A DNA stretch of 64,000 nucleotides, taken from NCBI GenBank assembly GCA_964522375.1, contig CAZFVB010000003.1, positions 14,608-78,607 of the forward strand. The letters are read 5' to 3'. Positions 3,288 through 23,293 of this stretch are shown here, in pieces (the first letter of the stretch is position 1; every line of letters starts with the position of its first letter). This DNA is from an uncultured Chloroflexota bacterium (GTDB taxonomy: Bacteria > Chloroflexota > UBA11872). The notes under the pieces are model-generated. The model was not told the origin of the DNA. It worked only from the letters and a program-made list of their open reading frames with translations, and searched no databases. A program made the translations under genes and the position numbers.

Positions 3288-3295
3288 ATATCAGT

Positions 3296-6307: not shown

Positions 6308-6350
6308 AGCAGTCCAATACTTCTGCATACCTAGCCGCAAGCGTTGGCAA

Positions 6351-6388: not shown

Positions 6389-6514
6389 TCAGCGATGCTT
6401 GGTTCCTCCAGGCCCACGACATGCGTCGTTGGCACAGAAGCCGAACCTTGGCATCATTCCCCCTAACATCGATCGCGCTGCGATGACGTCATCGCATGGG
6501 ATTCGGACACGCTC

Positions 6515-7507: not shown

Positions 7508-7508
7508 G

Positions 7509-8648
7509 ATGAGCGCTACCCCCGACACCCTGTCCAGCGAATCACCAGCCCCGGGCGGCCTTGACCCCAACGACCGATATTTCATTGCCTCGCAATGGAC
7601 GCTTATGCGGCGAAAGTTCCGGCGTCATAAGTTGGGCGTCATGAGCGTGTGGATCTTGCTGTTTCTGTACTTTATTGCGGCAACCTACGATTTCTGGGTC
7701 CCGTATCTCTCAGTCACGCGTTTCGAAAATGCGTTGGCCGGTCCACCAAGCGCGGTGCACATCGTCGACGATGACGGCCAGCTACGGCGGCCTTTCGTAT
7801 ACGGCCGTTCTGCGGTCCTCAACACCAAGACGTTCACCCGTGACTACACGGAAGACACATCCATGATCTGTGACATCGAGTTCTTCACCCAGGGCCAGGC
7901 CTACAAGATGTGGGGCCTGATCGAGACTGATCGCCATTTCTTCGGGGCCGGCGACTGCAACATCCACCTGTTTGGGACCGACGAATTTGGCCGTGATGTC
8001 TTCACCCGTACATTGGTCGGAGCCAGGATCAGTCTGTCCGTTGGTCTTGTGGGCGTGTTATTTAGCTTCATCCTCGGAACCCTGCTCGGAGGCATCTCAG
8101 GCTTCTTCGGTGGATGGATCGACATGGCGATCCAACGGGTTGTTGAGTTCTTGGTCGCAATTCCGACCACACCATTCTGGCTGGCCCTCAGCGCAACCAT
8201 CCCGGTCACCTGGTCACCCATCCAAACCTATTTTGCAATCACCGTCATTCTGTCCATCGTGGGATGGGCTCCGCTAGCCCGGACGGTTCGCGGCAACGTG
8301 CTCCAGCTACGTGAGCAGGACTATGTCATGGCCGCCAAAACAGCCGGGGCCCGGGACCGTCGGATACTGCTGGACCACCTGCTTCCCGGCTGCATGAGCT
8401 ACCTCATCGTGCACATCACCCTCTCCATCCCCGGCATGATTCTTGCCGAGACCTCGCTGAGCTTCCTCGGCCTCGGAATTCGAGCACCCGCGGTGAGCTG
8501 GGGCAGCCTGCTCCAGAGCGCCCAGAACGTCACAACGATCACCGTCCAACCCTGGCTGATGATTCCAGGCCTCTTTGTCATCGCGACCGTGCTGCTCTTT
8601 AACTTTGCCGGCGATGGGTTGCGTGACGCAGCCGATCCCTACAAGTAG
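7509..8648 (+). CDS. ABC transporter permease (DppC/OppC family)
   Basis: 379 aa starting 2 nt after the previous gene, with the N-terminal extension typical of DppC/OppC and an EAA-like motif (..VMAAKTAGARDRRILLDHLLPG..). Confidence 0.85.
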   Translation: MSATPDTLSSESPAPGGLDPNDRYFIASQWTLMRRKFRRHKLGVMSVWILLFLYFIAATYDFWVPYLSVTRFENALAGPPSAVHIVDDDGQLRRPFVYGRSAVLNTKTFTRDYTEDTSMICDIEFFTQGQAYKMWGLIETDRHFFGAGDCNIHLFGTDEFGRDVFTRTLVGARISLSVGLVGVLFSFILGTLLGGISGFFGGWIDMAIQRVVEFLVAIPTTPFWLALSATIPVTWSPIQTYFAITVILSIVGWAPLARTVRGNVLQLREQDYVMAAKTAGARDRRILLDHLLPGCMSYLIVHITLSIPGMILAETSLSFLGLGIRAPAVSWGSLLQSAQNVTTITVQPWLMIPGLFVIATVLLFNFAGDGLRDAADPYK

Positions 8649-8655
8649 GCCCCCA

Positions 8656-9651
8656 ATGCCAGACGCCGACATCCTCTTAGAAATCAAGAATCTCCGCACC
8701 CATTTCGCGCTCGAAGAAGGCACCCTAAAAGCCGTCGATGGCGTGTCACTTACGATCAGGAAGCACCGCACCCTTGGCATTGTGGGCGAGTCCGGTTGCG
8801 GCAAGAGCGTCACGGCCCAATCCATCCTTCGAATCGTTCCGAAACCAGGAACCGTGGAGGGGGAAATCCTGTTGCACACCAACGAGGACGTCGTTGACCT
8901 CGTGTCACTGAATCCATCAGGACGCTCAATTCGAAACATCAGGGGCCAGGACATCTCCATGATCTTCCAGGAACCAATGACCGCCTTTTCTCCAGTGCAC
9001 ACGATTGGGAACCAAATTATCGAAGCGATCCAGGTCCATGGGGAAGTCGCAGACGACGAGGCACGTCGCCGGGCCGTCTCCCTGCTTGAGCAAGTTGGAA
9101 TTCCAGAACCAGCCTCTCGTATCGACCAATATCCGTACGAGTTCTCCGGGGGCATGCGTCAGCGCGCGATGATCGCCATGGCCCTTGCCCTACAACCACA
9201 ATTGCTGATCGCTGATGAACCCACGACGGCGCTCGACGTCACGGTGCAGGCCCAGATTCTTCGACTCATGCAGCAGCTACAAAACGATCTGGGAATGGCA
9301 ATCATCTTCATCACGCACAATTTGGGCGTCATCGCCAACATGGCAGACGATGTCGCTGTGATGTATCTCGGGAAAGTCGTTGAACTCGGGACCGTCCAAC
9401 AGATTTTCCATGACCCCCAACATCCCTATACCCAGGCCCTACTACAATCGATCCCACAACTCGATCGGAAGCCCGGGGAACGATTGACGGCTATTGATGG
9501 CATCGTGCCAACACCGCTCGACCCGCCGGATGCCTGCGGCTTTGCCGACCGTTGCCCCAAGTTCATCCCGGGCCGCTGTGACACTGCGGTCCCGCCGTTA
9601 CTTACCCTCAGCAGCAACCAGCAGGTGCGCTGCGTGCTGTACGAACAGTAG
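8656..9651 (+). CDS. ABC transporter ATP-binding protein (DppD/OppD-like)
   Basis: Walker A GESGCGKS, signature FSGGMRQR, Walker [13 protein letters not shown], and a C-terminal oligopeptide-ABC Cys-rich tail. The ATG at 8656 follows the permease stop; the ORF-track start at 8575 overlaps the permease and is unlikely. Confidence 0.85.
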
Positions 9652-9728
9652 GCCCTAGATGTGGTTCCGACATCCCTCAGCGATTCGACACCTCGCATCG
9701 AGGCATCACCCCCAAGAGGGCGTCGTCT

Positions 9729-10763
9729 ATGAGTGAACCAAGTCCCGTCACTGACGCAGCTCCCACCCTCCTCGAAGTCCGTGGCCTCAAAAAACACTTC
9801 CCAATCAAGCAGGGGCTTTTTCGAAGAACCATCGGTCACGCGCGGGCTGTAGATGACGTGAATCTCACGGTGCGTGCGGGCACAACCCTTGGGATTGTGG
9901 GGGAATCTGGCTGTGGCAAGACGACGTTAGGCCGATGCATTGTGCGAGCTATTGATCCAACAGCTGGCCAGGTGTCCCTACGCATCAATGGCGAAATGGT
10001 TGAGATCAGCGACCTCTCCGCCGGGCGATTACGCCCCTTAAGAAAACATCTCCAAATGGTGTTTCAGGACCCCTATTCCAGCCTGAATCCCCGCAAAACC
10101 ATCCTGGATATCGTCTCAGAGCCATTACGTATTCACAATGTCGCCAAGGGTGCCGAACTCGAGGACCAAGTCTGCGAACTGCTTAAGGTCGTGGGCCTCG
10201 ACATTCGATATCTAAAGCGTTACCCGCATGCCTTCAGCGGTGGACAACGCCAGCGCATTGGGATTGCCCGAGCGCTCGGGCTAAACCCCGACCTCATTGT
10301 GTGCGATGAACCGGTGTCGGCACTGGATGTCTCAGTTCAAGCTCAAATCATCAACCTCCTCGAAGATCTCCAGCGTGAATTCGGATTAACGTACCTGTTC
10401 ATCGCACATGACCTGAGTGTGGTGAAACATATTTCCGACGAAGTTGCCGTGATGTATGTCGGAAAATTAGTTGAGCAGGCCGAAACCGAGGATTTGTTCA
10501 GGCAACCCAAGCATCCCTACACCGAGGCCTTGCTCTCCGCAGTCCCCCGTCCTAACCCCGATACGAAACTAGACGCCATCACTCTTGAGGGCGAAGTTGC
10601 GAGCCCCTCCAATCCACCATCGGGATGTTATTTCCATCCTCGCTGCCCCTACGCCGAGTCAATATGCGAAACCGAAACACCTCCGTGGACCAACGTCGGC
10701 CACAACAGATATGCCGCCTGTCACTTCGCCAATGACTTAAACCTACGGGGAGTTGACGACTAA
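9729..10763 (+). CDS. ABC transporter ATP-binding protein (DppF/OppF-like)
   Basis: Walker [10 protein letters not shown], signature FSGGQRQR, Walker [13 protein letters not shown], and a C-terminal Cys-containing tail. Confidence 0.85.
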
Positions 10764-10766
10764 ATC

Positions 10767-11195
10767 ATGCTCGTACTCGGGATTGGTATATGGCTCGTAT
10801 TCACAATCCTCATAATCATCCTGATCATTCGGTGGAACGTAGATAAATTTGGATCCCACGTTGAAGCCAACCATCGGGCAGCGGAAGACATTATCAATCA
10901 CGGGTGCGTACCCACCGCCTGGCTCCAGCCATTTCACGACCAACTCACCGAAACATCCCAGCAGGAAACCCCGGAAAACCTTAAGGAATCCGTTGGCCAA
11001 CAAATACTTGATCACTGTGTCGAAAAACTTGACACGTTAATCCGATACTTCGAAAAGAATCGGTTCGCGGCCGACGAGGAGGCCCGCTCAATTCTTCTGG
11101 AATCACTCACCAGCCGTAAGTCGGAATGGATGAATGGGGGTGGCCAGTCAATGCTGGCCCTCGCCGCCAACCAAAAAGGAGCCAGACAGCCATGA
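10767..11195 (+). CDS. Small hypothetical membrane-anchored protein at the end of the transporter operon
   Basis: 142 aa with an N-terminal TM (LVLGIGIWLVFTILIIILII). The start is 4 nt after the ATPase stop, and the stop overlaps the next gene's ATG (ATGA coupling at 11192-11195). Confidence 0.35.
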   Translation: MLVLGIGIWLVFTILIIILIIRWNVDKFGSHVEANHRAAEDIINHGCVPTAWLQPFHDQLTETSQQETPENLKESVGQQILDHCVEKLDTLIRYFEKNRFAADEEARSILLESLTSRKSEWMNGGGQSMLALAANQKGARQP

Positions 11196-12049
11196 AAATT
11201 GCTTATGGAACGTATGCCATGCCAACCGTGGCGTTAGAAGACGCCATCCCGGCCCTCGCGGATATCGGCTACGACGGCGTCGAAATCTGTATCGGGGAAC
11301 GGCATATCGGATCCATGCCAAGCGAATTGACACCGGACCGTCGGACACAGCTCAAGCAACTGTTAACCCAGCACGAGCTGGGAATCCCGGCGTTTTATGT
11401 ATCTGGCGCTCACACTCTCGAACTCGATGATGCGCAACATCAGACCAACCTCGAACACGTCCGTCGTGTCGCCCAACTCGGACACGAACTGGAGGCAGTC
11501 GGAGCCTGGGGGGGGCCGGTCGTAAGTCTTGGAATTGGCGGAAAGTCTGACCAGTGGGAACACATCAAGCACGACATCGTCCGGCGGTTGAACGATTACG
11601 CCGCCATGGCCGTAGAGGAAAATGTCCTGGTCGCGGCAGAAGCTCATTCAGGGGCTGCCGTTGACCGAACGGAACGAGCCTTGTGGGTCATTGAGCAGGT
11701 CGATAGCCCGCTGGTGAAATTGCACTTCGATATTGTGCATACCTTCCTGGCCGGTGAGCGTGTGCAAGATTCGGTACGAGATCTGGTCCCCATAACTGGG
11801 CACACACACATCACAGACGCGCACATCTATCCTGACGGATCTCGAGATCTCCTCCTGCTCGGCCAGGGCCAGCTCGATACCGTCGGGTATCTCAAGGCCA
11901 TGCATAAGGCTGGCTGGACTGACTTCATCACGCTGGAAGTTAGCGGCATGGTCTGGGGCCGAGATGACTACGATCCGATCGCAGCCGCTGTGTTTTCCTA
12001 CCAGACCATCGATCGAGCCTTTGGAGAAGCGGGGGTACCCCGTGAGTAG
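11192..12049 (+). CDS. Sugar phosphate isomerase/epimerase (xylose-isomerase-like TIM barrel)
   Basis: MKIAYGTYAMPTVALEDAIPALADIGYDGVEIC.. is typical AP-endonuclease-2/xylose-isomerase-like TIM barrel. RBS AAAGGAG lies upstream. The ORF-track start at 11126 is upstream and overlapping. Confidence 0.65.
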   Translation: MKIAYGTYAMPTVALEDAIPALADIGYDGVEICIGERHIGSMPSELTPDRRTQLKQLLTQHELGIPAFYVSGAHTLELDDAQHQTNLEHVRRVAQLGHELEAVGAWGGPVVSLGIGGKSDQWEHIKHDIVRRLNDYAAMAVEENVLVAAEAHSGAAVDRTERALWVIEQVDSPLVKLHFDIVHTFLAGERVQDSVRDLVPITGHTHITDAHIYPDGSRDLLLLGQGQLDTVGYLKAMHKAGWTDFITLEVSGMVWGRDDYDPIAAAVFSYQTIDRAFGEAGVPRE

Positions 12050-12135
12050 CTCCGCCTTGCCACGACGCAGGCCACGGGACCTACGAATAGCCGCATTCCG
12101 TTGGAACGGCACCATCACGAAAGACCGAGGTTGGC

Positions 12136-13221
12136 ATGGCGAGTAACCCGGAATTATCGATAGGCATTATTGGCGCGGGAAGCATTGGAACACGACATGT
12201 GTCGAACCTCGAGGTCATGGGTGACGTCACGGTATCCGCCGTATGCGACACCGTTCCCTCACAACTCGAGACGCTCGCAGGCCGGGCCAAGGCTCACGCC
12301 TATACCGACATCGCCGAGATGTTCAAGGGGGAGCCAGACCTTGATGCAGTCGTGATCTGTGTGCCCCCGGTCATCCGCCAACAAATCTTCGAACTTGCCG
12401 CTGCACATGAGGTTGCCGTGTTCTGCGAAAAACCGCCGGCATCAAGCATGGAGGACGCACAGGCGGTGGCCCGGATTGTTCGCGATAGCGGAATGATTTG
12501 CAGTGTCGGGTTCAACTGGCGGTATTCGCCGGCCGTCCAGTACATGCGACGGTTACTGCACGAACAACCCGCCCAACTGGTGCTCAGCACGTTTCTTTCA
12601 GGGGGTGGGTCGGTCGTTGGCCTACGACGAGAGGCCAGTGGCAATTGGTTCTTTAAGAAAGCAATATCCGGTGGGCCGAATCTCGATCAGGCAATCCACG
12701 TTATCGACCAAATGCGCTTTCTCATGGGCGAAATTGTGAAAGTCCAAACGTTTGCCACCAACCTCATTCCCAAATCACAGGACTTTACGGTTGAAGACAC
12801 CACCTCCACGAACCTGCAGTTTGCGAGCGGCGCCACGGGGATGCACGTGCACTCGTGGGGCACACCGCCTCCAGGTGATAACCGCTTCAAACTCATCGGG
12901 CTCGATTATTGGCTCGAACTTAAACCGTATACCCCCGCCCAGGTTCAAGGATCGATGGGGGATACGAGCGACAATTTGGAAGAAATCGACAAAACGTTCG
13001 CCCAGGATTTCACGGATGCACGAAACGAGCGGGTCGTCGAACCACCAGACCCGTGGCACTACGAAGAAATTAAAGTGTTTCTGGACGCCGTCCGAACGCG
13101 CGACACGAGTCGAGTACATAGCAGTTACGACGATGGCATGCGGTCACTAGCCGTGGTTCTGGCCATGAATCGATCCATTGACTCGGGGGAAGCTGAGGCC
13201 ATCGGAGAACTAACACCATGA
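12136..13221 (+). CDS. Gfo/Idh/MocA-family NAD(P)-dependent oxidoreductase
   Basis: N-terminal Rossmann motif IGIIGAGSIGTRH and the EKP motif (FCEKPPA). Confidence 0.75.
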   Translation: MASNPELSIGIIGAGSIGTRHVSNLEVMGDVTVSAVCDTVPSQLETLAGRAKAHAYTDIAEMFKGEPDLDAVVICVPPVIRQQIFELAAAHEVAVFCEKPPASSMEDAQAVARIVRDSGMICSVGFNWRYSPAVQYMRRLLHEQPAQLVLSTFLSGGGSVVGLRREASGNWFFKKAISGGPNLDQAIHVIDQMRFLMGEIVKVQTFATNLIPKSQDFTVEDTTSTNLQFASGATGMHVHSWGTPPPGDNRFKLIGLDYWLELKPYTPAQVQGSMGDTSDNLEEIDKTFAQDFTDARNERVVEPPDPWHYEEIKVFLDAVRTRDTSRVHSSYDDGMRSLAVVLAMNRSIDSGEAEAIGELTP

Positions 13222-13260
13222 CCCCAATCCGTTTCCTCCCATACCCTGCGTCTCTCATCC

Positions 13261-14181
13261 GTGACAAGAGGAGATCTGGCCATGCATCACTCAACTGACC
13301 AGCAGGCCATCCTTACGGCCGACCAAAAACAGTTCTGGCAGGACAATGGCTACCTTCGACTGGAGAAGGTTTTCACTCCCGAACAAGTCCAGGACCAATC
13401 GGATGAACTTGAGCGGATGATGCAGGAATGGGGTGCCATGGGACAGGGATGGCGTGGACCATGGCGCAAAGCGATCATGGAAGCCGATGAAGCCGATCAA
13501 GCCAAGGCCCTGATCCTTGCCGGACTTCAGAACTACTCGGCCACGTATCTGCAAGCCGTCGTCAACCCCACACTGACCGGCGCCGTCAGTACATTGCTCG
13601 GCGATACCGCCGTTGAATTCCACCACTCCGTCCTTCACGCCAAGGCCCCAGGCCTCGGCACCCCCTTCCCCATGCACCAGGACTGGCCCTTCTACCCGCA
13701 CTGGGGTCCAGGATGCGTGGCCGCCATCATGCATATCGATGCAGCAAATGAAGACAACGGATGCCTTTCCTTCCTCCCTGGCAGCCACAAGAATGGCCCG
13801 CTTCAACACGTGCTGCATACCGTCGAGGACTACGGCGAATACGAGCAGCCCTACCTTCCAGTCGAGGAATATCCGCTCGAATCGGCCGTCTTATGCCCGG
13901 CAGATGCTGGCGATGTCGTGTTCTTCAACGTGAACACGGTGCACGGATCGGCGCCAAACCGGACCGACGGATGGCGACGGCTTATTCGGGTCGTGTACCG
14001 GGACCCAGAAAACCCAGCCCTCTTGCCGCAACATACCCACTGGACCGGGCCAACTCACAACCGCAGCAAGTCAAAACCTTCGGAAGACCCACGAGGAATG
14101 ATTGTCCACGGCAAATATCATCGCCCGGAAACAACACCCGAACCGTCCGAACCCACGCTAACCGGACAAGCACCGAATTAA
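13261..14181 (+). CDS. Phytanoyl-CoA dioxygenase (PhyH) family Fe(II)/2-oxoglutarate dioxygenase
   Basis: PhyH-like pattern (..WQDNGYLRLEKVFTPEQV.., HQDWPFYPH, ..NTVHGSAPNRTD..). Start could be ATG 13282. Confidence 0.6.
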   Translation: MTRGDLAMHHSTDQQAILTADQKQFWQDNGYLRLEKVFTPEQVQDQSDELERMMQEWGAMGQGWRGPWRKAIMEADEADQAKALILAGLQNYSATYLQAVVNPTLTGAVSTLLGDTAVEFHHSVLHAKAPGLGTPFPMHQDWPFYPHWGPGCVAAIMHIDAANEDNGCLSFLPGSHKNGPLQHVLHTVEDYGEYEQPYLPVEEYPLESAVLCPADAGDVVFFNVNTVHGSAPNRTDGWRRLIRVVYRDPENPALLPQHTHWTGPTHNRSKSKPSEDPRGMIVHGKYHRPETTPEPSEPTLTGQAPN

Positions 14182-14233
14182 TGAATCCACAACGTCAATG
14201 TGGAGCTAAGTTCACACCTGTCGGAGGACGTCC

Positions 14234-14638
14234 ATGAGCAGCAGTCAAATGACGGAGCGGGACGCAAAAGTCATTTCCAACACTGCGGTCGAACCCGAGC
14301 GCATCGAACTGGAAGGATTTCAACGGACCGTTACTAAGTTGCTCGAAACAACCCGCATGACCGTCCACGTTGCGACCTTTGACCCGCAACAGGCTGGTTC
14401 TCATCATGTCCATCCCAAATCCGAGGAAGTGACGTACATCATCAGTGGGGCAGGTGCCGTTACGGTTGGAACTCGAACCCTCGATCTGTCGGCCGGCGAC
14501 CTGTTCTACGGTCCGCCGAATGTCCCGCACCAATTCCGCAATACCACCAACGAACCGCTTGTCCTATTTTCGATCTATAGCCCACCTGACGAACTCCCGC
14601 TCTACGGAAATCTGCCAACCGCGAACGACGAGGCGTAA
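14234..14638 (+). CDS. Cupin-domain protein
   Basis: 134 aa with cupin motifs (HHVHPKSEEVTYIISGAG.. / ..GDLFYGPPNVPHQFRN). Confidence 0.6.
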   Translation: MSSSQMTERDAKVISNTAVEPERIELEGFQRTVTKLLETTRMTVHVATFDPQQAGSHHVHPKSEEVTYIISGAGAVTVGTRTLDLSAGDLFYGPPNVPHQFRNTTNEPLVLFSIYSPPDELPLYGNLPTANDEA

Positions 14639-14645
14639 TCCCCCG

Positions 14646-16223
14646 TCAACACCCTTCCAGGTGACGAAGTTCCGGCCATATGGACTTCATCGACCATGCC
14701 GACAGCGACTGGAGACGGGCCGGACCTCCACGGGCAAAAAGCGCCACCCCGGCACTATCCTCCCGCGACGGATAGGTGCGAAGGGTTAAGCATTGTTGAT
14801 CACCCACAAATACTTCCACCACGCTTCTATCAACGAATACGCGGAGACGCAACAAGTCGTCCGGGTCCGATGTGAGCGGCCCAATCTCAGGATCTCGTGC
14901 ATACACATCCTCACGTAGTGACGCCTGAGAGATATCGATTTGCAAACGAGGTGTTCCGCCCACTTGGCCGGTCTTGGCCTGAAGTAACGAGATCCGTGTC
15001 TGTTCTACGCCGTCAGGAGATCGAAGCACCGCAATCCCGACCTCACGAGCCTCTCCCGGATCAATCACCGCCTGGATCTCGAGCGCTTTTCCATTCACCG
15101 TGTCGATCGGAATCTCCGTATTCCCAGGAATCTCCATTGAATCGACGACCACCTCATCGCCCCGTAGCGACTCAATCTCCTCGACTGGCGCCATACGAAG
15201 CGACGCGTCCGAATCCAACCAATAGTGACGGGGCAGCGTCATCACATCGGTCCACGCCGTTCCAGCACGACCTTCCTTCACATTAAACACACCGATGTAC
15301 CGACCCTGGTCATCCACCGTCGCGGTTGGCGCGTGCAGGCTACCCGTTGCAAACGCGCCATAGTTCATCCGTCCAAACCGTTCAGGATTCAGACGATGCG
15401 TCTCACGGTCATAGGTTCCGATGTAGTACTGCCCGGCCCGTTTATGACTAAAGAAAAGCATCATGTGGCGACCGTCGCCAATGGGCCAGAAATTCGGCAC
15501 CGCGCCGTCCTCACCGGGTTCCGAGTGAAAACCGCCTTCGATAAGCGTGCCAACATGTTCCCAGGTAGAAAGGTCCGACGATCGAAAGAGGTGGTCTATT
15601 GCGCGGCAATCCGCCCGTAATTCACCATCCTTATAAGTGCCTGAAATGGCGTAGTACCCGTCATCTTCTTTCCAGATGCACGGATCGAACACCCGGTATG
15701 GAGATCCATCCGCATCAATCGGAACCATCGGAATAACCGGGTTATCCGGATGCTTGGCCCAATTCAGCAGCAACGGATCCGTCGCCGTCGCAATACTGTT
15801 ACCGGATTCAGTACCGTGATAAATCGCAATCACTCGATCCGGTTCGACCAGCGTTTGCCCGCTATAACAATGATGCTCGGTTGTCGGATAGAGGGCCGGC
15901 GGAAGATCCGTCCAGCGGACGAGATCATCACTGACCGTGTGCCCCCAATGCACCCGGTTTTCGTTATCAGGTTTCCCCCACTGCGGGCGAAACTGATAGA
16001 ACATGTGAAAACGTCCTTGCCACTGACATAACCCATTGGGGTCATTCATCATTCCCTGCGGTGGCGAAAAATGAAACAGCGGACGATAGGGATCCGTAGC
16101 AAGTGCCTGCCGCGAAGCCAAGAACTCCGCAAGGTCAGGATCTTCGGCTAATGCCGAACGCTGGGCCTCTAATTCATCCGGAAAGATCCGACCATACAGA
16201 GGTGTGTGGGCCATTGCTCTCAA
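14646..16223 (-). CDS. Glycoside hydrolase family 32 (beta-fructofuranosidase / levanase / inulinase-like)
   Basis: GH32 hallmark MMNDPNGL near the N-terminus (..FHFSPPQGMMNDPNGLCQWQGRFHMFYQF..), an RDP-like region and a C-terminal beta-sandwich, 525 aa. Confidence 0.8.
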   Translation of the reverse strand: MRAMAHTPLYGRIFPDELEAQRSALAEDPDLAEFLASRQALATDPYRPLFHFSPPQGMMNDPNGLCQWQGRFHMFYQFRPQWGKPDNENRVHWGHTVSDDLVRWTDLPPALYPTTEHHCYSGQTLVEPDRVIAIYHGTESGNSIATATDPLLLNWAKHPDNPVIPMVPIDADGSPYRVFDPCIWKEDDGYYAISGTYKDGELRADCRAIDHLFRSSDLSTWEHVGTLIEGGFHSEPGEDGAVPNFWPIGDGRHMMLFFSHKRAGQYYIGTYDRETHRLNPERFGRMNYGAFATGSLHAPTATVDDQGRYIGVFNVKEGRAGTAWTDVMTLPRHYWLDSDASLRMAPVEEIESLRGDEVVVDSMEIPGNTEIPIDTVNGKALEIQAVIDPGEAREVGIAVLRSPDGVEQTRISLLQAKTGQVGGTPRLQIDISQASLREDVYARDPEIGPLTSDPDDLLRLRVFVDRSVVEVFVGDQQCLTLRTYPSREDSAGVALFARGGPARLQSLSAWSMKSIWPELRHLEGC

Positions 16224-16286
16224 TATTCCCGTGTCATACCTGTCTTCATCATCGCACTTTCGCGCACGATCTTCGGCGACCTGAAT

Positions 16287-17534
16287 CTAGGTGACATGGC
16301 CATCCCCCTTTGTCCCTCGAAGCCCCTCAACCACCGTTGCCAGAACCTCGACAAATTCACGCGCGTGCGTCACATCCCGATGGGGATGGATCGACAACCG
16401 AATACGTCCGGTCCCACCCGATTGCCCGTAGGTACTCCCCCAACCTGACTTCCGCAATTCCAGGTGCAGTTGCTGGACATCCACAACATCAGAGGTGAAA
16501 TTGACCACGCCAAGCCCCGGGCGGGCCAGTAATCGAAGCCCTGCAATCGCATCGATCCCTTCACTGACAATCTGGACAACCTCCAACAAATTTTTAATGG
16601 ACGCCCGATAACCACTCCGACCCAAATGCCGCATAACCGCCCATGCTGCAGCCGCATGATCACCAGGCTTTGTCGCTGTAATGGTGTGAATAACCGTTGA
16701 GTCCGATGGGATGGCGTTCAACATATCGGCATCGCGGACCAGGAAAAACCCGGTAGCCACGGGAAGCAAGCCGAGCTTGTGCCCGTCGGTCATCATCGAA
16801 CTCACGCCCGGCAGACTGAAATCAAATGCAGGCACCTGGTACCCGAGTTCACGAACAAAGGGCAACCCAAACCCGCCGAACGCAGCATCGACGTGTAGAT
16901 ACAGACCATGTCGTTCCGCAATAGCCGAGAACTCTTCAACCGGATCAAGTTGTCCGAAATTGCCTTCCGGAGCTGAACACACCAGGGCAACCGTGTGTTG
17001 ATTAAGGAGTTGCTCCACCTGGCTCATATCGGGCCGCATCGCATCATCGACAGGGATTTCTCGCAATCGAAGCCCGAACAATTCAGCCGCCATACGAAAG
17101 CTATAGTGCGCGGACACTGGCAGCACGACCTCGGGTTCGGACACACCCGCCAGGTTTCTGGCCAATCGCATGGCCATTAAATTCGACTCGGTCCCCCCAC
17201 TGGTGATAAATCCGACGGCCTCCGGATGTCCCAGGAGAGAACCCAACATGCGGACCGCCTGCTTTTCAAACAGGTCGGTAGCGGGATTCATCTCACGAGC
17301 CCATTCCACAAAAAAACGGCCGGCCGTGAGGTCACGCACCCGCTCCACAATGGCATGCGGCGGGCCCACATAACTCACACCAAAGTTTTTCTCCACGGCA
17401 TATGGATCAGACGTGAGATGCGCTGCAAGATCAGCCAGCACGTCCTCCTCAGGCGCACCGTGTTCGGGGAAATCCATCGGCGGCGGCATGGGGATCGCCG
17501 AGCGATCGCCGGTCCGGTCAAATTCCTTGGCCAC
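16287..17534 (-). CDS. Pyridoxal-phosphate-dependent decarboxylase (group II; MfnA / Glu / diaminobutyrate-decarboxylase-like)
   Basis: 415 aa fold-type I PLP enzyme with the DGHK lysine motif (..SMMTDGHKLGLLPVATGFFLVRD..). Confidence 0.65.
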   Translation of the reverse strand: MAKEFDRTGDRSAIPMPPPMDFPEHGAPEEDVLADLAAHLTSDPYAVEKNFGVSYVGPPHAIVERVRDLTAGRFFVEWAREMNPATDLFEKQAVRMLGSLLGHPEAVGFITSGGTESNLMAMRLARNLAGVSEPEVVLPVSAHYSFRMAAELFGLRLREIPVDDAMRPDMSQVEQLLNQHTVALVCSAPEGNFGQLDPVEEFSAIAERHGLYLHVDAAFGGFGLPFVRELGYQVPAFDFSLPGVSSMMTDGHKLGLLPVATGFFLVRDADMLNAIPSDSTVIHTITATKPGDHAAAAWAVMRHLGRSGYRASIKNLLEVVQIVSEGIDAIAGLRLLARPGLGVVNFTSDVVDVQQLHLELRKSGWGSTYGQSGGTGRIRLSIHPHRDVTHAREFVEVLATVVEGLRGTKGDGHVT

Positions 17535-17613
17535 AACACTTTCTCCTCATCCCGCAACAGACTCCAGTCTATCCAGCAGCTAAATCTATAAGATCGATAA
17601 GAGCGTCATATCC

Positions 17614-19209
17614 CTATAGATCACGATCCCCGGCAAAGCCCGGACCTCCAGCAGCTACGTAACCCCGACTCGATCCTGACTTCGACGTGCTGACCCAGAA
17701 GGCATAGAACTTGCCCCGACGGATCTGAAACCGAAAGCGAACCGGCCGTCCAACGACCGACGCTAGATGGTCGACCTCTCGCCAACCCACGCTCACGCAC
17801 GTCGAATCGACAGCCACCGGCTGACACGCGTCAAGCGTGAATGGCTCGATGACATTGCCATGCTCATCCAAAACTTCGACACGCAATTCGCCCCTGGGGT
17901 TATCCACGTTAAGGAACAGGTGCTCGCCACGAAACGTCACCAACCGGGTCACCAGAGTTTCCAGATCATCACCAGCATCCATCGACGCAAACCCGTCGCG
18001 GCGGAGCGTCGCGAGCCCCGTATGACCGCCTGCATACATCGCGTTGTCCTGGGGAAAGTCATCCCCGGTTTGACCCGGGCCTAACACAGACCCCTGACCA
18101 GAAAACGCCCCGTAGTAAAACCACAATTCTTCACCCACTACAAGACACACACCTCCGGCAGCATGGATATACCCGTAGTTCCAATCCCCCCATTCGTGAC
18201 TTGACCCAATAAAGGCCTTCCGATGAGGACGATGCCAATGAAATCCATCGCGGCTATACGCGATTTGGACATCATTGATCTTGGGACGGCTGATGCGAGC
18301 CGCCTCCTCATTATGTGGCCCGTGAAAAATCGAGATCGCCCCCAACATGATGCTCTCGTATGCCACTGCAGTAAGATCGTAGAGCTGGGGCTGAAGGCCA
18401 ATTTGTGGGATTGGACGATCGAAATGGTCCGCTCGAGCCCATTGCACCGGGACGTCCTCAGCCCACGATCCCACACGAGCAAAGCTCGGATGCTCGACGT
18501 ACATTCGCGCACGATCACCGCCATTCCAACCCCGGCGAATGCTAAAGACCCATTGCTTACGAAATGGGTTATAGAAAAAACTTGTGTTATCGCCACACTC
18601 AGACACGGGCGCGACTTCTTCCCAGTGTGCACCGTCCGGCGACGCATAGATCCAACCACCATTTCGATGAACGCCTCGCCAGTAGATGAACATTTTGAAA
18701 CGTTCGGCCGATGGCGCATCCGCATCACGCCACACCAGGGCGCCATCGCGCCGATCGGTCGTGGGGTGCGCTACAACCGCGTTCGTGCCCTCTACCACGT
18801 CCAACATCGGACGGTCCCACTGAATCCCATCGGCACTGGTGGCTAACGCCGTGCCATCAAACCATCCGGCGTGATACCAGAGCTTGAATTGCCCTTCCTC
18901 GGGGTCATACCACGCCCCGTCGTTAAATGGAGCAGCCACTGGACAATGGTCATCGTTACGTTCCAACCGCGTTCGTGGTGACAGGACAGGTGCAGCCTCG
19001 TGAATGGTGGCGGTGTGGTGGGTGCGGTTCAACGACGATTCCTCGATCAGGAAGTCATCAACGAAGAGTTGCCGCCCAATGTCAATCGGGACTACCCGGG
19101 GCCTGTCCACCAGATATGGCACCGGCAACGGGTCAGAGCCAGCCACAATCCCGGTCGGAGGCCAGGTATCGGGACGCGAAATTCCGTTGTACATGGGTCG
19201 GGATGTCAC
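17614..19209 (-). CDS. Putative beta-propeller glycoside hydrolase-like protein (GH130/GH43/GH32-clan-like), family unassigned
   Basis: 531 aa. N-terminal region ..AAPVLSP..PFNDGAWYDPEEGQFKLWYHAGW.. and recurring ..SRDGFHW.. / ..WGDWNYGYIHAAG.. blades resemble 5-bladed propeller hydrolases. I cannot name a family from reading alone. Confidence 0.3.
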   Translation of the reverse strand: MTSRPMYNGISRPDTWPPTGIVAGSDPLPVPYLVDRPRVVPIDIGRQLFVDDFLIEESSLNRTHHTATIHEAAPVLSPRTRLERNDDHCPVAAPFNDGAWYDPEEGQFKLWYHAGWFDGTALATSADGIQWDRPMLDVVEGTNAVVAHPTTDRRDGALVWRDADAPSAERFKMFIYWRGVHRNGGWIYASPDGAHWEEVAPVSECGDNTSFFYNPFRKQWVFSIRRGWNGGDRARMYVEHPSFARVGSWAEDVPVQWARADHFDRPIPQIGLQPQLYDLTAVAYESIMLGAISIFHGPHNEEAARISRPKINDVQIAYSRDGFHWHRPHRKAFIGSSHEWGDWNYGYIHAAGGVCLVVGEELWFYYGAFSGQGSVLGPGQTGDDFPQDNAMYAGGHTGLATLRRDGFASMDAGDDLETLVTRLVTFRGEHLFLNVDNPRGELRVEVLDEHGNVIEPFTLDACQPVAVDSTCVSVGWREVDHLASVVGRPVRFRFQIRRGKFYAFWVSTSKSGSSRGYVAAGGPGFAGDRDL

Positions 19210-19299
19210 GAGGAACGGTCAATATACGGTCGTAACAGGCACACGCGAACCATCAGGAGCCGCCCTGCCCGTCGACGATTACAACGGACCATTGCTCAC

Positions 19300-21573
19300 T
19301 CACGATGCTGGCACATCCGTCATAAAGCGGCGCAGCACATTCGCTGTGATCCGGGAAACATTATTCTCGTATTGGTTGTAAGACAGACTCCCACGCCAGG
19401 CGATGGACCCCACCGAAAACACCGCGCCGCCACCAGGAAGTTGGAGATACGTCATATCGGCTCGAACAAATGGGTGCGGCACGCCGGTAACTGGAGGTTC
19501 TCCCGGAAGCACACCATCTTTCCCCTGGGTGAATTGGAGGATTTCATCCATAAAGGTCACATACTTGGACGAGTGGTTTATTGACGATGCGAGCAGCAGC
19601 GTGTGCGGCGGAGTTCCGAGTTCGTCATCGGCACGATCCATCTCATACCCCGCAGCACCGTGCTGGACCATCAACGATGGGAAATCCCCAATTAACTCGG
19701 TGTCGTCAACACCTTCAAATATAAATGCCGCCGCCGGGTCAAAGCTTTCAGCCTGCCGAAGATATGGCGAGCCACGGTCAAACCCGGCCGAACACGACCC
19801 CACGCCAACCAGCGCCTGAGGAGTCTGACCACGATTCCGCCACGTGCCTCCCGGTTCACCCGTCGTACTGTGCACCCGTTCGCCTGGCAGCATCTCAAAT
19901 GGCCAACTCGTGCCCCATCGACGCACCTCCACAATATGGGACCGTTCCTCATCGATCGAGGTCACACCAAAAAACCCGTTGCCGCCCAGGTACATCAACC
20001 GACCGCCGTCCCCCAAATACGTCTCCAACCCCGCGCGCATCGATGCTGTCCAGTACTCAGGATGTGCTCCGGTCAAAACCACGCGATATGGAGCTAAGAG
20101 GTCCTCACCCTCAGCGTGGAGATCGTGATCTGTAAGAACGTCAACCTCAAAACCCAGCGCGTCCAACCAGTCAATGAGATAGAGATCGGCAGGGAACCGC
20201 GCTGGCGTCCCCCAGACGCGATATCGGAACTTCGGGCGCATGTTCAAGATGGGCCGCCGATGCGAAACATACGTCGTGCCGGAACCATCAGAATGTCGCT
20301 CGTAAAGCCCAGGCAACCCGTTCTCACGGATATATGCAAACTCTGCCTGGTGAAGATCCGGATCGACATTCGGTAAGCGCTCAGGATCCCAGAACCCGCC
20401 ATCGATATCTCGAAAGTTGGCATAAACGACGTAGGTCAGCGTCGGCATCAACACTGCAACGCGAGCCCTAGCCGTACCTCGAGGTGGTCTCACAAAGAAT
20501 GGGAGGTACTCTTCATCCTCCCCAGCACGAAGACGAGCGGCATACACGCCGCTGGACAGATCATCTGGAATTGTCAGGCGAAAATCTGGCACCCATCGGG
20601 CATCCTCAAGATCGTCATCATGAAAATGGATAGCTCCGTACTCATCAGGTGCCAAGCGAAAACTCGTTTCATCGCCGGTCCAGTTGAAACCGGTTACACC
20701 ACGCGTCGGCATGTTGACCGTGTCGCCATGCATCGCATGCGGCCCATGATCAATCACCCGGTGTTGATCGAGGTCGACATCAAAGCGCCAAGCCGCCACC
20801 AGCGAGTCGGCCAAGTCGTCGAATCCAGGCCAATCGATTTGCCCGGTTGCAGGACAGCCGACCACTGCACGGCTATAGATGCGTGGACTATCAACCTTCC
20901 CGTTGTAGGCACCACGTATCGGTGCAGCCACCTCAGGGCCATCGGTACTCAGCGCACCGATCACCAATGGTCGGCCCGTAGTCACGTGAACAGGCCGATC
21001 CACAACGTCTTCTGCGATGGCCTGTCCTCGCCCGTCCGACGACGGAACCTTCGGAAGCTGCCAGACAACGACACGACCAGTGTCCCCGTCATAACTAGCC
21101 CCGACCAGACTCCAAGAAGCCGCGAGCAACGGGACTCCGGAGGAAACTTCCGTCAAGTCACCGTGCTGTCCCCGAAGCCAGAACCGCAGCACACCGTCAT
21201 CGCCAATCACGAGCGCAAAACCTGGAACGTCCGACGACTCGGGCCACTGCGAGATGAGGCCTTGAAGCCTACCCGCAGGAGCGGTCGGGAAAACCCATGC
21301 CGTCACCGTAAAACTACGCATCGCCTCTACCGCTTCATGACCAGGCACCCGCACGCATGACCCGCTATAAATCGCCTGCATACGCCCCGGATAGTGCCCG
21401 GCAATTGACGACGACACTTCACGTTCCCGATATCCGGGACCACGTGGGCTTTCATCACCGTGGATCAACTGAACAAGCTCTACCTGATACCGAGCATGGC
21501 GACTACTCACCATGAATTCGATGACATCTCCGGGCCCAGCGCTTAACCGATCTGTATAACCCACAAGATTCAT
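19300..21573 (-). CDS. N,N-dimethylformamidase large(beta)-subunit-like protein with N-terminal LamG/concanavalin-like domain
   Basis: 757 aa, similar in size to DmfA2. It has an N-terminal jelly-roll region (..VTAWVFPTAPAGRLQGLISQW..) and a C-terminal region (..ADLYLIDWLDALGFEVDVLTDHDLHAEGEDLLAPYRVVLTGAHPEYWT..LMYLGGNGFF..) that I recall as characteristic of the DMFase beta-subunit / DUF6605 family. Confidence 0.4.
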   Translation of the reverse strand: MNLVGYTDRLSAGPGDVIEFMVSSRHARYQVELVQLIHGDESPRGPGYREREVSSSIAGHYPGRMQAIYSGSCVRVPGHEAVEAMRSFTVTAWVFPTAPAGRLQGLISQWPESSDVPGFALVIGDDGVLRFWLRGQHGDLTEVSSGVPLLAASWSLVGASYDGDTGRVVVWQLPKVPSSDGRGQAIAEDVVDRPVHVTTGRPLVIGALSTDGPEVAAPIRGAYNGKVDSPRIYSRAVVGCPATGQIDWPGFDDLADSLVAAWRFDVDLDQHRVIDHGPHAMHGDTVNMPTRGVTGFNWTGDETSFRLAPDEYGAIHFHDDDLEDARWVPDFRLTIPDDLSSGVYAARLRAGEDEEYLPFFVRPPRGTARARVAVLMPTLTYVVYANFRDIDGGFWDPERLPNVDPDLHQAEFAYIRENGLPGLYERHSDGSGTTYVSHRRPILNMRPKFRYRVWGTPARFPADLYLIDWLDALGFEVDVLTDHDLHAEGEDLLAPYRVVLTGAHPEYWTASMRAGLETYLGDGGRLMYLGGNGFFGVTSIDEERSHIVEVRRWGTSWPFEMLPGERVHSTTGEPGGTWRNRGQTPQALVGVGSCSAGFDRGSPYLRQAESFDPAAAFIFEGVDDTELIGDFPSLMVQHGAAGYEMDRADDELGTPPHTLLLASSINHSSKYVTFMDEILQFTQGKDGVLPGEPPVTGVPHPFVRADMTYLQLPGGGAVFSVGSIAWRGSLSYNQYENNVSRITANVLRRFMTDVPAS

Positions 21574-21619
21574 TGGTTATGGATCCCTTCGCGAACGCTT
21601 AGTCATCGAATGGACTCGG

Positions 21620-23203
21620 CTAGCTGGCCGGAAGATGTGCAGCAAGCACATGCCCATCCGTCATGATGGCTCTCACAGCAAACACCCATGAACCCCAGGC
21701 AAAACCAGAATACCCACCGCCAGGACCAGGAGCGCACAGCCTGATCCGGACTCGATTCGCTCCGCGCCGAAGATCCGCAGATATGGTGACGGTATCGAAC
21801 AACGCATGCGATCCCAGGGGCTGCCACGGACCGTCATTCACCTGAATTTGAAGATCGCCGATCCACCCGACATGCAGGTCAACGGCCCCATCCGACGGTG
21901 CCACCAGTTCCGTCTGAGCCAGGCCAACAGCGGGACGGGAGCGTTCATCGTCTAGCTCTGGCAGCACAAACACGCGGGCAAAATCTACAAAGCCGTGGAT
22001 GTCTCGAACCTGTTCCCAACAAGCGACGGCTCGATCAGCCCGCCGCCATGGTGAATCTTCGGAATACCCGGTATCCGGGTATCGGTGCCGGACATCAGGG
22101 ACATCCTTTTCAGCCCCTAGTGATCCCTCATGATCTTGCACACTGGGATGAAATGGCCCACAGACCCACCAGGTCGGCGTGGTCTCCATCCGTTCGAGAT
22201 CGGCTCGGCCCGAATCGGTCCCCGCTGCCAACGCACTCCATGCCGGCAGCGTGGTAAACGGTTGATGTGGAGGCTCCTGATACCAATACGCAGTGCTACA
22301 TATGTCATTCGCCATACAAGCAAAATGCACTTGAATGGCCTGATCAAACGTAATCACGTCATGCTCAAAGAATCGGTATGCCGCCAGGCGATGTCGGGCC
22401 AGCGCCTGGCCGTGCCCCCAGTCTTCATGCACGTAGTACGGCATACCCTGATCCAGGTGAGAACTTGGCGAGTGCGTCACCCCGCCATACGCCGCACCAA
22501 ACGTGTCCTCACCGCCGCTGCCTCGCAAGTGAGAGAAAGCACCACCCGGGGCATCCACATTGTTGGCAAGATAAATGTTTTCAGCCCCCGCATGCGACCA
22601 TCGAGATCGGTCGTCATACAGCCGCACACCGTATCCGAACCCCAGAAATCGCCCCCGCCCGACCGCGTCAAGAATCATGTAGCCTGGTCCAAACGCCTCG
22701 CATGGGAACTCGCGCCGGAATTGCGCATGGAATCGCATCGGTTCCGTCAACGCGTCATTGTTGTAGCGATGCCAGTCCACATGCCATACAAGCGATTGTC
22801 CTTCGGCAGCCGGACCCCCTTCGACTTCAATCCTCGCCCGTCGAGAAAATGGCATAGGGAAAAACGAGGTCACACCAGTTCGCGTCTGCGAAATCAAGTA
22901 CCGAGAATTCAACGGGTAGTGCGGGACGCCATGCAGCAATCCGAAGAAATCGGGTAAGGGCACCTCCACTGCCGGAATCTCCGCATCATCCCAACGTACC
23001 CGCAGAATCATCTGGCGTAACGCCTCCGGAGTACTGCGTCGGCTCATCGCAAACCATATGCGCCGGATACAGCCTGGCCCGTCAAGATCAGCCAAGAGCG
23101 ATGGCTTCCCCATTTGCAGTGTTATGGCACCCAGCGTCCGTGATGGGGCAACCCGATCAGGCAACGTCAACCCAGCATCCATCGATCCGCGTCCTACATC
23201 CAT
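21620..23203 (-). CDS. DUF2961 / GH172-like protein (tentative)
   Basis: 527 aa. The ..DLDGPGCIRRIWF.. motif and overall size resemble DUF2961 (GH172 difructose-dianhydride hydrolase family). Low certainty without an HMM. Confidence 0.3.
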   Translation of the reverse strand: MDVGRGSMDAGLTLPDRVAPSRTLGAITLQMGKPSLLADLDGPGCIRRIWFAMSRRSTPEALRQMILRVRWDDAEIPAVEVPLPDFFGLLHGVPHYPLNSRYLISQTRTGVTSFFPMPFSRRARIEVEGGPAAEGQSLVWHVDWHRYNNDALTEPMRFHAQFRREFPCEAFGPGYMILDAVGRGRFLGFGYGVRLYDDRSRWSHAGAENIYLANNVDAPGGAFSHLRGSGGEDTFGAAYGGVTHSPSSHLDQGMPYYVHEDWGHGQALARHRLAAYRFFEHDVITFDQAIQVHFACMANDICSTAYWYQEPPHQPFTTLPAWSALAAGTDSGRADLERMETTPTWWVCGPFHPSVQDHEGSLGAEKDVPDVRHRYPDTGYSEDSPWRRADRAVACWEQVRDIHGFVDFARVFVLPELDDERSRPAVGLAQTELVAPSDGAVDLHVGWIGDLQIQVNDGPWQPLGSHALFDTVTISADLRRGANRVRIRLCAPGPGGGYSGFAWGSWVFAVRAIMTDGHVLAAHLPAS

Positions 23204-23293
23204 GAATTCGAGATCCCTACCACATAAACCGAGCGCCTCTAACCTTACGATAAGCGCGCGGTCGGATAAGCCAGCCGCACGGCCTCACCATCG

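Follow-up and report, generated by a model that had tools for sequence, protein, structure and literature searches.

The subject of this analysis is an array of five minus-strand genes in DNA of an uncultured marine Chloroflexota bacterium; the window that we analysed is a stretch of 64,000 nucleotides (nt). In order of transcription the array encodes a protein similar to glycoside hydrolase family 172 (GH172), an amidase similar to the large subunit of N,N-dimethylformamidase (DMFase), a beta-propeller protein that we call P3, a pyridoxal 5'-phosphate (PLP) enzyme and a GH32-like protein (Table 1). All five open reading frames (ORFs) lie where an earlier, sequence-only reading of this DNA had placed them, and Pfam hidden Markov models confirmed the four families that it had named (GH32, Pyridoxal_deC, DMFase large subunit and DUF2961/GH172), including those of the two upstream genes, which matched DMFA2_C and DUF2961/GH172. 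Nothing in the array is an artefact, and all families are recognisable save that P3 belongs to no described family. The start codons could be off by a few codons: relatives have been annotated with 526 amino acids (aa) for P3, 522 aa for GH32 and 518-520 aa for GH172, and the window proteins are probably 526 aa (P3, from an internal ATG) and 522 aa (GH32-like). GC content over the region is about 0.56-0.59, and the stop codon of the GH32-like gene lies 7 nt from that of a convergent cupin gene.

Table 1. Features of the five-gene array and its surroundings in the window.
Feature	Position	Strand	Basis
GH172-like (DUF2961) protein, 527 aa	21620..23203	-	PF11175
DMFase-large-subunit-like mononuclear-iron amidohydrolase (putative), 757 aa (LamG-like domain + DMFA2_C)	19300..21573	-	
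P3, predicted five-bladed beta-propeller + C-terminal beta-sandwich, 531 aa	17614..19209	-	
Fold-type I PLP enzyme, MfnA/sphingosine-1-phosphate-lyase clade, 415 aa	16287..17534	-	PF00282
GH32-like protein, 525 aa	14646..16223	-	PF00251 + PF08244
90-nt divergent intergenic region, GH172-like gene/YfhO gene	23204..23293	.	ORF map
M24 hydrolase (ectoine-hydrolase/creatinase-like) + Amdase/EutA-like protein	2076..4048	+	Pfam, NCBIfam
Convergent cluster, Opp/Dpp-type ABC importer to cupin	4139..14638	+	Pfam, NCBIfam, synteny

The gaps between the five genes measure 46, 90, 79 and 63 nt, as short as had been reported except that the widest is 90 rather than 91 nt. Scanning with consensus patterns gave no terminator-like site within the four gaps, all hits being at or below chance. 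Since the genes are co-directional, closely spaced and uninterrupted by such sites, the DNA is compatible with a five-gene operon, and co-transcription is plausible. The operon geometry proposed earlier stands. For the promoter proposed with it the scan was uninformative: it gave no sigma-70-like match in the divergent intergenic region, where all hits were again at or below chance. That region is the sole possible place for a promoter of the whole array and is a candidate region in this sense. Inspection of the N-termini of all five proteins gave no signal-peptide-like sequence.

To place the array among its relatives, gene neighbourhoods were compared in 80 loci from reference genomes with P3 as anchor, 80 from metagenomes with the PLP enzyme as anchor and a further nine contigs (12 loci, L001-L004, L085-L088 and L169-L171), and all P3- and PLP-anchored loci were searched with the window proteins. 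The nearest relatives of P3 and the PLP enzyme are metagenome-assembled genomes (MAGs) of uncultured Chloroflexota. Assemblies at NCBI, ENA, JGI, Logan and Tara Oceans contain identical proteins or ones at about 97% identity, under automatic names only ("hypothetical protein", "beta-fructofuranosidase" or "N,N-dimethylformamidase").

Five lineages were distinguished, given here with the identity of their PLP enzyme to that of the window. Lineage A (the window, L085 and L086; 97%) has the whole array together with its YfhO/DUF6772 flank and the convergent plus-strand cluster. Lineage B (nine MAGs, 89-95% identical to one another; 71-74%) has the amidase, P3 and PLP genes in the same order and nothing else in common, and in most of these MAGs the end of the amidase gene and the start of P3 are at most a few bases apart. 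Lineage C (L087; 76%) has the amidase gene followed directly by the PLP gene, without P3, and the pair is flanked by genes for an Amdase, a creatinase-like M24 protein, a protein similar to dihydrodipicolinate synthase (DHDPS)/NanA and three BNR sialidase-like proteins. In lineage D (L089 and L090; 50-52%) the order of the pair is reversed; its neighbours are a class-III aminotransferase and a major facilitator superfamily (MFS) transporter in L090, and a second amidase paralogue and a gamma-glutamyltranspeptidase in L089. Lineage E (L088; 62%) has no amidase gene, and a BNR-like propeller gene stands directly upstream of the PLP gene.

The amidase and PLP genes are adjacent in four Chloroflexota lineages (A-D), in variable order, and P3 lies between them in two of the four (A and B). 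None of 76 more distant PLP homologues (at most 57% best-segment identity, most of them 33-43%) has an amidase neighbour; the metagenome scan anchored on the PLP enzyme returned mostly relatives at 33-43% without partners, L089 and L090 alone being informative. None of the 84 P3-anchored loci contained GH172; the GH172-like gene accompanied the array only in L085, a relative whose PLP enzyme is about 97% identical. A GH32 gene of the window's subclade occurred in only one P3-anchored locus (L004), and the GH32-like gene is part of the array only in relatives at the same level of about 97%. Because the pair is conserved in four lineages and the glycosidase-like genes accompany it only in these closest relatives, the amidase and PLP enzyme are the conserved core of the array, and the GH172-like and GH32-like genes are recent lineage-specific additions confined to the window's species-level group. 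This reverses the sequence-only reading, in which the amidase and the decarboxylase were odd passengers in a glycosidase operon. A literature search found no paper describing this gene combination or the amidase-PLP pairing.

The same comparisons bear on the idea that the neighbourhood is a mosaic, in which only the amidase-P3-PLP triad, or the amidase-PLP pair, is functional and the GH172-like and GH32-like genes are chance flanks drawn from expanded families. The absence of GH172 from the P3-anchored loci would fit this, as would the wholly different flanks of the triad in lineage B, the occurrence of the GH32-like gene elsewhere in an unrelated context (L170) or, together with a sulfatase, as a tandem array (L171), and a frameshift in the GH32-like gene of L085. 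Against it, all five genes are co-directional, with gaps of at most 90 nt and no terminator-like sites. A hint of a common pathway comes from one related assembly, where the GH32-like gene and the amidase-PLP pair each stand beside M24 and Amdase genes. In L004 the P3 homologue adjoins a GH32-like paralogue of the window's subclade. We hold a mosaic to be on the unlikely side, though it is the chief rival of the catabolic unit proposed below.

The amidase carries a Laminin_G_3 domain (44 bits) and a DMFA2_C domain (PF20254; 295 bits), and it aligns over its full length (residues 4-756; 508 bits) with the large subunit of Paracoccus DMFase (DmfA2; PDB 6LVB) and at 390 bits with an N-acetyl-(R)-beta-phenylalanine acylase (PDB 8HUY). 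In DMFase, Y399, Y440 and E521 are the ligands of a mononuclear Fe(III) (a 2-Tyr-1-carboxylate site), H519, N547 and E657 are essential, and F693 from the neighbouring subunit forms a constriction that keeps out larger amides (PMC7686228). In our alignment Y384, Y424, E506, H504, N532 and E644 of the window protein correspond to Y399, Y440, E521, H519, N547 and E657, all six identical. The F693 constriction is not kept: the position aligns to Leu, in a loop with an insertion of 9-10 residues. With all six catalytic residues kept and this loop altered, the protein is very probably an active iron amidohydrolase whose substrate differs from N,N-dimethylformamide (DMF) and is probably larger. By analogy, the acylase 8HUY shows that the family handles N-acyl amines. 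In L089 (743-5951), two DMFA2-like paralogues stand in tandem downstream of the PLP gene and are followed by the gamma-glutamyltranspeptidase gene, an arrangement that suggests diversification of the amidase family in a setting of amide/amine catabolism.

The large subunit of Paracoccus DMFase is inactive alone and requires a small subunit for activity (PMC7686228). As the sequence-only reading had said, no small-subunit gene lies near the window's amidase: the intergenic gaps are too short to hold a fitting ORF, and a 142-aa ORF (10767-11195), the only unassigned one of similar size, had no PDB match. A 129-aa ORF overlapping the start of the amidase gene in L003 was likewise rejected, being of low complexity and matching neither a PDB entry nor the C-terminal part of the GH172-like protein. 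Neither of these two ORFs matched the small-subunit chain of DMFase. In the 8HUY entry all chains bear a single molecule name, and none is listed separately as a small subunit. A genomic survey counted far more large-subunit homologues than small-subunit genes and describes DMF as a synthetic compound without known natural occurrence (bioRxiv 10.1101/2021.03.18.435917).

The PLP enzyme has a Pyridoxal_deC domain (98 bits), and its PLP-binding lysine, K253 in the motif DGHK, is invariant in 26 homologues. In NCBIfam it best matches the archaeal tyrosine/aspartate decarboxylase MfnA (TIGR03812), with a score of 273.9 bits that falls below the equivalog cut-off of 299.4. Among solved structures it scores higher against the sphingosine-1-phosphate (S1P) lyase StSPL (186 bits) than against MfnA (135 bits). 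We compared the residues that bind the phosphate and head group in StSPL, namely Y105, N126, H129 and K317 (PMC10243590). Only the first is kept, as Y55; the other three align to V76, A79 and V259. An S1P lyase, and with it a glycosphingolipid pathway, was rejected on these grounds. With the MfnA score below its cut-off and the lyase head-group residues lost, the enzyme lies between the two and fits neither. Decarboxylation appears likelier than cleavage between C-alpha and C-beta. The earlier label of a group II PLP decarboxylase agrees with the domain and the lysine but is only approximate, given the sub-threshold MfnA score and the higher-scoring lyase structures.

P3 gave no sequence match in Pfam, NCBIfam or the PDB, in agreement with its earlier description as a beta-propeller without a family. 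An AlphaFold (AF2) model built on 27 sequences (pLDDT 86.8, pTM 0.88) predicts a five-bladed propeller with a C-terminal beta-sandwich. Foldseek matched the model to GH32, GH130, GH43 and GH159 enzymes and to the GalNAc deacetylase 6N1B, with a probability of 1.0, 10-13% identity and target-normalised TM-scores of up to 0.68. A few sources label relatives of P3 as GH32; comparison with the GH32 profile by hhalign gave a probability of 0.5%, so that the fold alone is shared and P3 was rejected as a divergent GH32. Nor does it show similarity to the BNR-like protein beside the PLP gene of L088. Its homologues form more than 5,766 clusters, none with a Pfam domain, from Chloroflexota, Planctomycetota, Verrucomicrobiota, Bacteroidota, Latescibacterota, Poribacteria, Spirochaetia and other groups. 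Three invariant acidic residues, D97, D207 and E285, lie at or next to strands assigned to blades 1, 3 and 4; judged from blade position only, we propose them as candidate catalytic residues in a layout like that of the GH32 catalytic triad. P3 also has three Asp-box-like turns of the form S-x-D-G-x-x-W at residues 125-131, 190-196 and 319-325 (TSADGIQW, ASPDGAHW and YSRDGFHW), each one residue shorter than the classical BNR motif.

Over 75 loci the neighbours of P3 include sulfatases (11), GH32 (7), MFS transporters (6), SusC-like receptors (5) and adjacent DHDPS/NanA-like lyases (4), and alcohol and short-chain dehydrogenases recur. These neighbourhoods are glycan-utilisation contexts.

The GH172-like protein matches PF11175 with 151 bits (cut-off 27) and has PDB matches to 8IC8 (76 bits) and 7V1V (68 bits). 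In the GH172 alpha-fructofuranosidase alphaFFase1 of Bifidobacterium dentium, which acts on difructose anhydride (DFA) I and inulobiose, the nucleophile is E291 (adjacent to D292) and the acid/base is E270, and the E270A variant keeps at most 0.6% activity (PMC8605356). The nucleophile pair is kept in the window protein as E232-D233 (GGEDTF), as is W202. The position of E270, in the motif W-W-G-E-G, is occupied by A205, preceded by H204 and followed three residues later by E208; this assignment requires no indel when counted back from the conserved downstream strand. In a set of GH172 representatives aligned with MAFFT --auto, the motif of the window's clade, W-x-H-[GA]-G-x-[DE], was found in 45 of 150 sequences (Asp or Glu at the +3 position in 43 of the 45) and the canonical WWGEG in 53 of 150. 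The GH172-like protein thus belongs to a divergent clade, for which alpha-fructofuranosidase or DFA I activity cannot be assumed from family membership.

The GH32-like protein shows a parallel change. Both GH32 domains are recognised (PF00251, N-terminal, 154 bits; PF08244, C-terminal, 82 bits; cut-offs 22), and the nucleophile D61 is kept within the NDPNG motif (MMNDPNG). Alignments to 7VCO and 7BWB set A241-V242, within E238-D239-G-A241-V242, against the acid/base "EC" motif, with the following conserved P-[DN]-F-[FW]-P as anchor, so the general acid/base Glu is not present. The RDP motif reads R177-V-F179-D180-P: its Asp is kept, and its Arg is displaced by two residues in the alignment to 1ST8 and replaced by Phe in that to 7VCO. 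We compared 121 sequences of this marine subfamily with at least 60% identity, from SAR202, Anaerolineaceae, Phycisphaeraceae and Tara Oceans. D61 and D239 are present in 121 of 121 and A241 and D180 in 120 each, and the new E238-D239 pair is essentially invariant. A paralogue in L004, 46% identical and next to the P3 homologue, has "AC" at the acid/base site, and the canonical paralogue in that locus has "EC". Such strict conservation within the GH32-like and GH172-like subclades points to function rather than decay; for the GH32-like protein it implies an active site that is remodelled and under selection, and canonical beta-fructofuranosidase chemistry cannot be assumed.

Elsewhere the GH32-like subfamily is found beside Amdase and M24 genes (L169), with nothing relevant nearby (L170) and as four tandem copies with sulfatase, PhyH and BNR-like genes (L171). 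The last case, in Anaerolineaceae (4116-16302), is a striking local expansion, in which the four remodelled paralogues and a fifth GH32/GH43-like gene are followed by the sulfatase gene, with the PhyH gene and ABC permeases nearby. A single frameshift, near residues 184-204, interrupts the GH32-like gene of L085 (11312-12933) and could be an assembly error or early pseudogenisation; in L086 the gene is intact.

The sequence-only reading had proposed fructan or difructose-anhydride metabolism, with GH32 acting on beta-fructofuranosides, GH172 on alpha-fructofuranosides or DFA I, and the amidase and decarboxylase as passengers. The family membership of both proteins and the activity of the Bifidobacterium enzyme would favour this. 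The replacement of the acid/base Glu in both proteins and throughout both subclades weakens it, the more so given the near-complete loss of activity in E270A; GH32 and GH172 occur together only in the window's species-level group, the supposed passengers are the conserved core, and among the Pfam-annotated flanking genes there is no fructose kinase or sugar-type transporter, the adjacent importer being of the Opp/Dpp (peptide/opine) type. The array is probably not an ordinary fructan-degrading operon, and we consider this explanation very unlikely.

On the plus strand, twelve co-directional genes (2076-14638) converge on the array. Downstream of the M24 and Amdase-like genes come those of the Opp/Dpp-type importer, with an unusually large binding protein of 722 aa that has a lipoprotein-like N-terminal leader, two permeases and two ATPases, and then genes for the 142-aa protein, a xylose-isomerase-like TIM barrel, a Gfo/Idh/MocA oxidoreductase, a PhyH dioxygenase and the cupin. 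The part from the importer to the cupin (4139-14638) is kept with the array only in relatives at about 97% (L085 and L086) and is likely an uptake and sugar-modifying partner of it. The TIM barrel and the oxidoreductase weakly resemble oxidative glycoside-cleavage and levoglucosan-type enzyme sets, with NCBIfam scores (glycoside 3-dehydrogenase 25, disaccharide 3-dehydrogenase 33 and levoglucosan dehydrogenase 70 bits) far below the cut-offs. Two pairs of ORFs in the cluster overlap by about 70 nt, a permease (7509-8648) with an ATPase (8575-9651) and the 142-aa ORF with the TIM barrel (10767-12049). The TIM barrel has 285 aa in L085; since relatives are called with later starts, the listed start codons in 7509-9651 and 10767-12049 are probably too far upstream.

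The M24 and Amdase-like proteins were compared with enzymes of ectoine degradation. All scores in this Doe/Eut orthologue test fell below the cut-offs: 235 against 575 bits for the M24 protein and DoeA_2 (ectoine hydrolase), 99 against 318 for the Amdase-like protein and EutA, and 164 against 613 in a further comparison. The M24-Amdase pair recurs beside the amidase-PLP pair (L087) and beside a GH32-like gene (L169) in one related assembly, and the proteins of both loci are recorded on a 3.33-Mb contig. This hints that the M24-Amdase, amidase-PLP and GH32-like families work together, with M24 and Amdase as a tentative accessory.

These genes raise the further possibility that the locus degrades an ectoine-like osmolyte or cyclic amide. 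The M24 protein would open a cyclic amidine or lactam, the Amdase-like protein would take the role of EutA, the amidase would replace DoeB/EutE in deacetylating an N-acetyl-diamino acid and the PLP enzyme would decarboxylate the released amino acid, for example 2,4-diaminobutyrate or aspartate, with the glycosidase-like genes as accessories. Ectoine hydrolase and EutA are indeed among the best NCBIfam matches of the two proteins, the pair lies directly beside the amidase and PLP genes in L087, a class-III aminotransferase (the DoeD-type family) adjoins the latter pair in L090, and the amidase relative 8HUY deacetylates an N-acetyl amino acid. However, the matches are far below the equivalog cut-offs, and in the window the M24 and Amdase genes lie at least 15 kb from the amidase gene, on the other strand. 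Known ectoine transporters are of the TRAP or Ehu type, not of the Opp/Dpp type found here. Three glycosidase-fold proteins would also be left without a role, and we regard an ectoine-like pathway as decidedly improbable.

Several observations concern the other side of the array and the wider window. The 964-aa membrane protein encoded at 23294-26188 (+) matches YfhO over its last 50 or so residues only; directly downstream, at 26251-27162 (+), lies the gene for a DUF6772 protein (391 bits), and both genes are kept with the array in L085. Between 28636 and 33485 are genes for a benzoylformate-decarboxylase-like thiamine diphosphate enzyme (337 bits, cut-off 493), a 218-aa protein, a short-chain dehydrogenase/reductase and a second PhyH dioxygenase. 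Related loci in which PhyH genes stand near P3 and GH32-like genes are L001, L004, L040, L048 and L171. GC skew is negative in every 2-kb bin of 1-64000 but one (4001-6000, +0.012), and the cumulative skew falls almost steadily, which places the window on a single replichore, without an origin or terminus.

We propose, tentatively and at somewhat short of an even chance, that the five genes form a cytoplasmic catabolic unit, probably on one transcript, in which a glycoconjugate is trimmed and an N-acyl group taken off before the freed amine goes to the PLP enzyme. The substrate would be taken up, probably through the convergent Opp-type importer. P3 and the GH172-like and GH32-like proteins would then strip or rearrange a furanosyl-type sugar decoration, and the iron amidase would hydrolyse an N-acyl amide of the formyl or acetyl type to unmask a primary amine. 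The amidase would have to act before the PLP enzyme because the latter binds only a free amine; it would form the external aldimine and cleave at the alpha-carbon, most likely by decarboxylation. The three glycosidase-fold proteins would have been recruited to the pair in the window's lineage, with P3 inserted between the two core genes. What the sequences show is the gene order, the families, the conserved catalytic residues and the synteny; we infer co-transcription, the catabolic direction, the order of steps and the substrate class. The substrate would be an N-acylated amino compound, either derived from a glycoconjugate or bearing one; N-acylated amino acids, amino sugars and amino-sugar acids are plausible. 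Because 2-amino-2-deoxy-aldonic acids are alpha-amino acids, such a substrate would explain a decarboxylase among glycan genes. That the GH172-like and GH32-like proteins keep the nucleophile and replace the canonical acid/base suggests a bond or leaving group unlike that of an ordinary O-glycoside (one that needs no protonation), substrate-assisted cleavage or a relocated acid/base residue.

A number of observations weigh against this catabolic unit. The full array is confined to relatives at about 97%, with GH172 absent and GH32 rare in the other sampled loci, so the functional link of these two proteins to the core is weak. The GH32-like gene of L085 carries the frameshift. Lineages A-C are related Chloroflexota, and part of the synteny may be plain inheritance; L088, at 62% identity in the PLP enzyme, does without the amidase. 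The pair in lineage D has no glycosidase neighbours, so the glycan connection is not intrinsic to it. P3 has no universal partner across its 75 loci, no small subunit is present here though the Paracoccus large subunit is inactive alone, and the array has neither a regulator nor a recognisable promoter. On the other side, the glycan link recurs in L087, where the pair lies amid the sialidase-like and DHDPS/NanA-like genes, and in L088, with its BNR-like gene before the PLP gene. Relatives of P3 in other phyla stand with genes for sulfatases, SusC-like receptors, DHDPS and MFS proteins. The operon geometry, the conserved amidase-PLP pair, the intact catalytic residues of both core enzymes and the strict conservation within the GH32-like and GH172-like subclades also speak for the unit, as does the lack of signal peptides in all five proteins next to an importer with a lipoprotein-like binding protein.

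The direction could also be biosynthetic: the PLP decarboxylase would make an amine of the tyramine or beta-alanine type, which would then be glycosylated or acylated, with the glycosidase-fold proteins as transglycosylases. MfnA-type enzymes are biosynthetic in archaea, as the NCBIfam name indicates, and in a retaining glycosidase without its acid/base transglycosylation can be favoured. Yet the array has no glycosyltransferases, ligases, nonribosomal peptide or polyketide synthase genes or exporters, its neighbours are importers, hydrolases and oxidoreductases, and the characterised DMFase-family members among the matches are hydrolytic, all of which makes a biosynthetic cluster highly improbable.

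A bolder form of the catabolic proposal, which we think unlikely as a whole, is that the amidase and PLP enzyme are a natural module, so far undescribed, for unmasking N-formyl or N-acyl amines for PLP-dependent cleavage, coupled here to three furanosidase-type proteins, of which the acid/base-exchanged GH32 and GH172 act on non-O-glycosidic or self-activating furanosyl conjugates. If true, it would give the widespread DmfA2 family a natural role outside solvent degradation, point the GH172-like and GH32-like proteins to targets such as glycosylamines (N-glycosides), esters or phosphates, and mean that abundant marine Chloroflexota have a new catabolic pathway and as many as three new carbohydrate-active specificities.

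Of the five proteins, three are unusual for their families and one has no described family. DMFase homologues are common in genomes, and only two activities were found characterised in the literature, one of them on a synthetic solvent; the conserved partnership with a PLP enzyme is a testable lead to their natural role. The family-level, CAZy-style label "beta-fructofuranosidase" is probably wrong for hundreds of proteins from marine Chloroflexota, Planctomycetota and other groups, in which the catalytic machinery is not the canonical one. P3 stands for thousands of unannotated propeller proteins in glycan-utilisation loci of many phyla and is a candidate new glycosidase family. The host group comprises abundant ocean heterotrophs thought to degrade recalcitrant organic matter, and the identity of the substrate would bear on marine carbon and nitrogen cycling.

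The array can finally be set against the systems that its parts resemble. The amidase is homologous over its full length to DMFase (6LVB) and the acylase 8HUY and has their three domains, one of them LamG-like, as well as their Fe ligands (Y/Y/E) and their catalytic H, N and E. It differs from the alpha2beta2 DMFase in lacking a nearby small-subunit gene, in an F693 loop about 10 residues longer with Leu at that position, and in being paired with a PLP enzyme rather than with genes of amine or formate oxidation. The PLP enzyme shares with MfnA and StSPL (3MAD/5EUD) the fold-type I group II architecture and the PLP-binding Lys, His and Asp. Its alignment to the MfnA model is near full-length, but the score stays below the equivalog level, and in contrast to StSPL it has hydrophobic residues at three of the four head-group positions and no N- and C-terminal extensions.

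Ectoine catabolism (DoeA/EutD, EutA, DoeB and DoeD) is similar in that M24 and EutA-like proteins are repeatedly accompanied by an amide hydrolase and a PLP enzyme that handles amines. It is dissimilar in that the scores are far below orthologue level, the deacetylase would be a non-homologous replacement, the transporter is of a different type and glycosidase-like genes are present.

For the carbohydrate-active families the likeness lies in architecture and nucleophile. The GH172-like protein shares PF11175, the Glu-Asp nucleophile pair and the Trp of the -1/+1 subsites with alphaFFase1 (7V1V) and an exo-alpha-D-arabinofuranosidase (8IC8), whereas E270 is replaced by Ala or Gly, the neighbouring Gly by a conserved His, an Asp or Glu is conserved at +3, and there is a C-terminal extension of about 200 residues. 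The GH32-like protein has both Pfam domains, the nucleophile and the transition-state Asp of beta-fructofuranosidases such as 7VCO and the Thermotoga invertase 1UYP, but Ala for the acid/base Glu, Val for the Cys, a displaced or replaced RDP Arg and a new invariant E-D pair 2-3 residues upstream, all of them changes fixed in the entire subfamily (at least 121 clusters). P3, as modelled, shares the propeller and beta-sandwich architecture of GH32, GH43, GH130, GH159 and the Flavonifractor plautii GalNAc deacetylase 6N1B, but only 10-13% of their residues, and unlike GH32 it has no Pfam model and no similarity to GH32 at the profile level.

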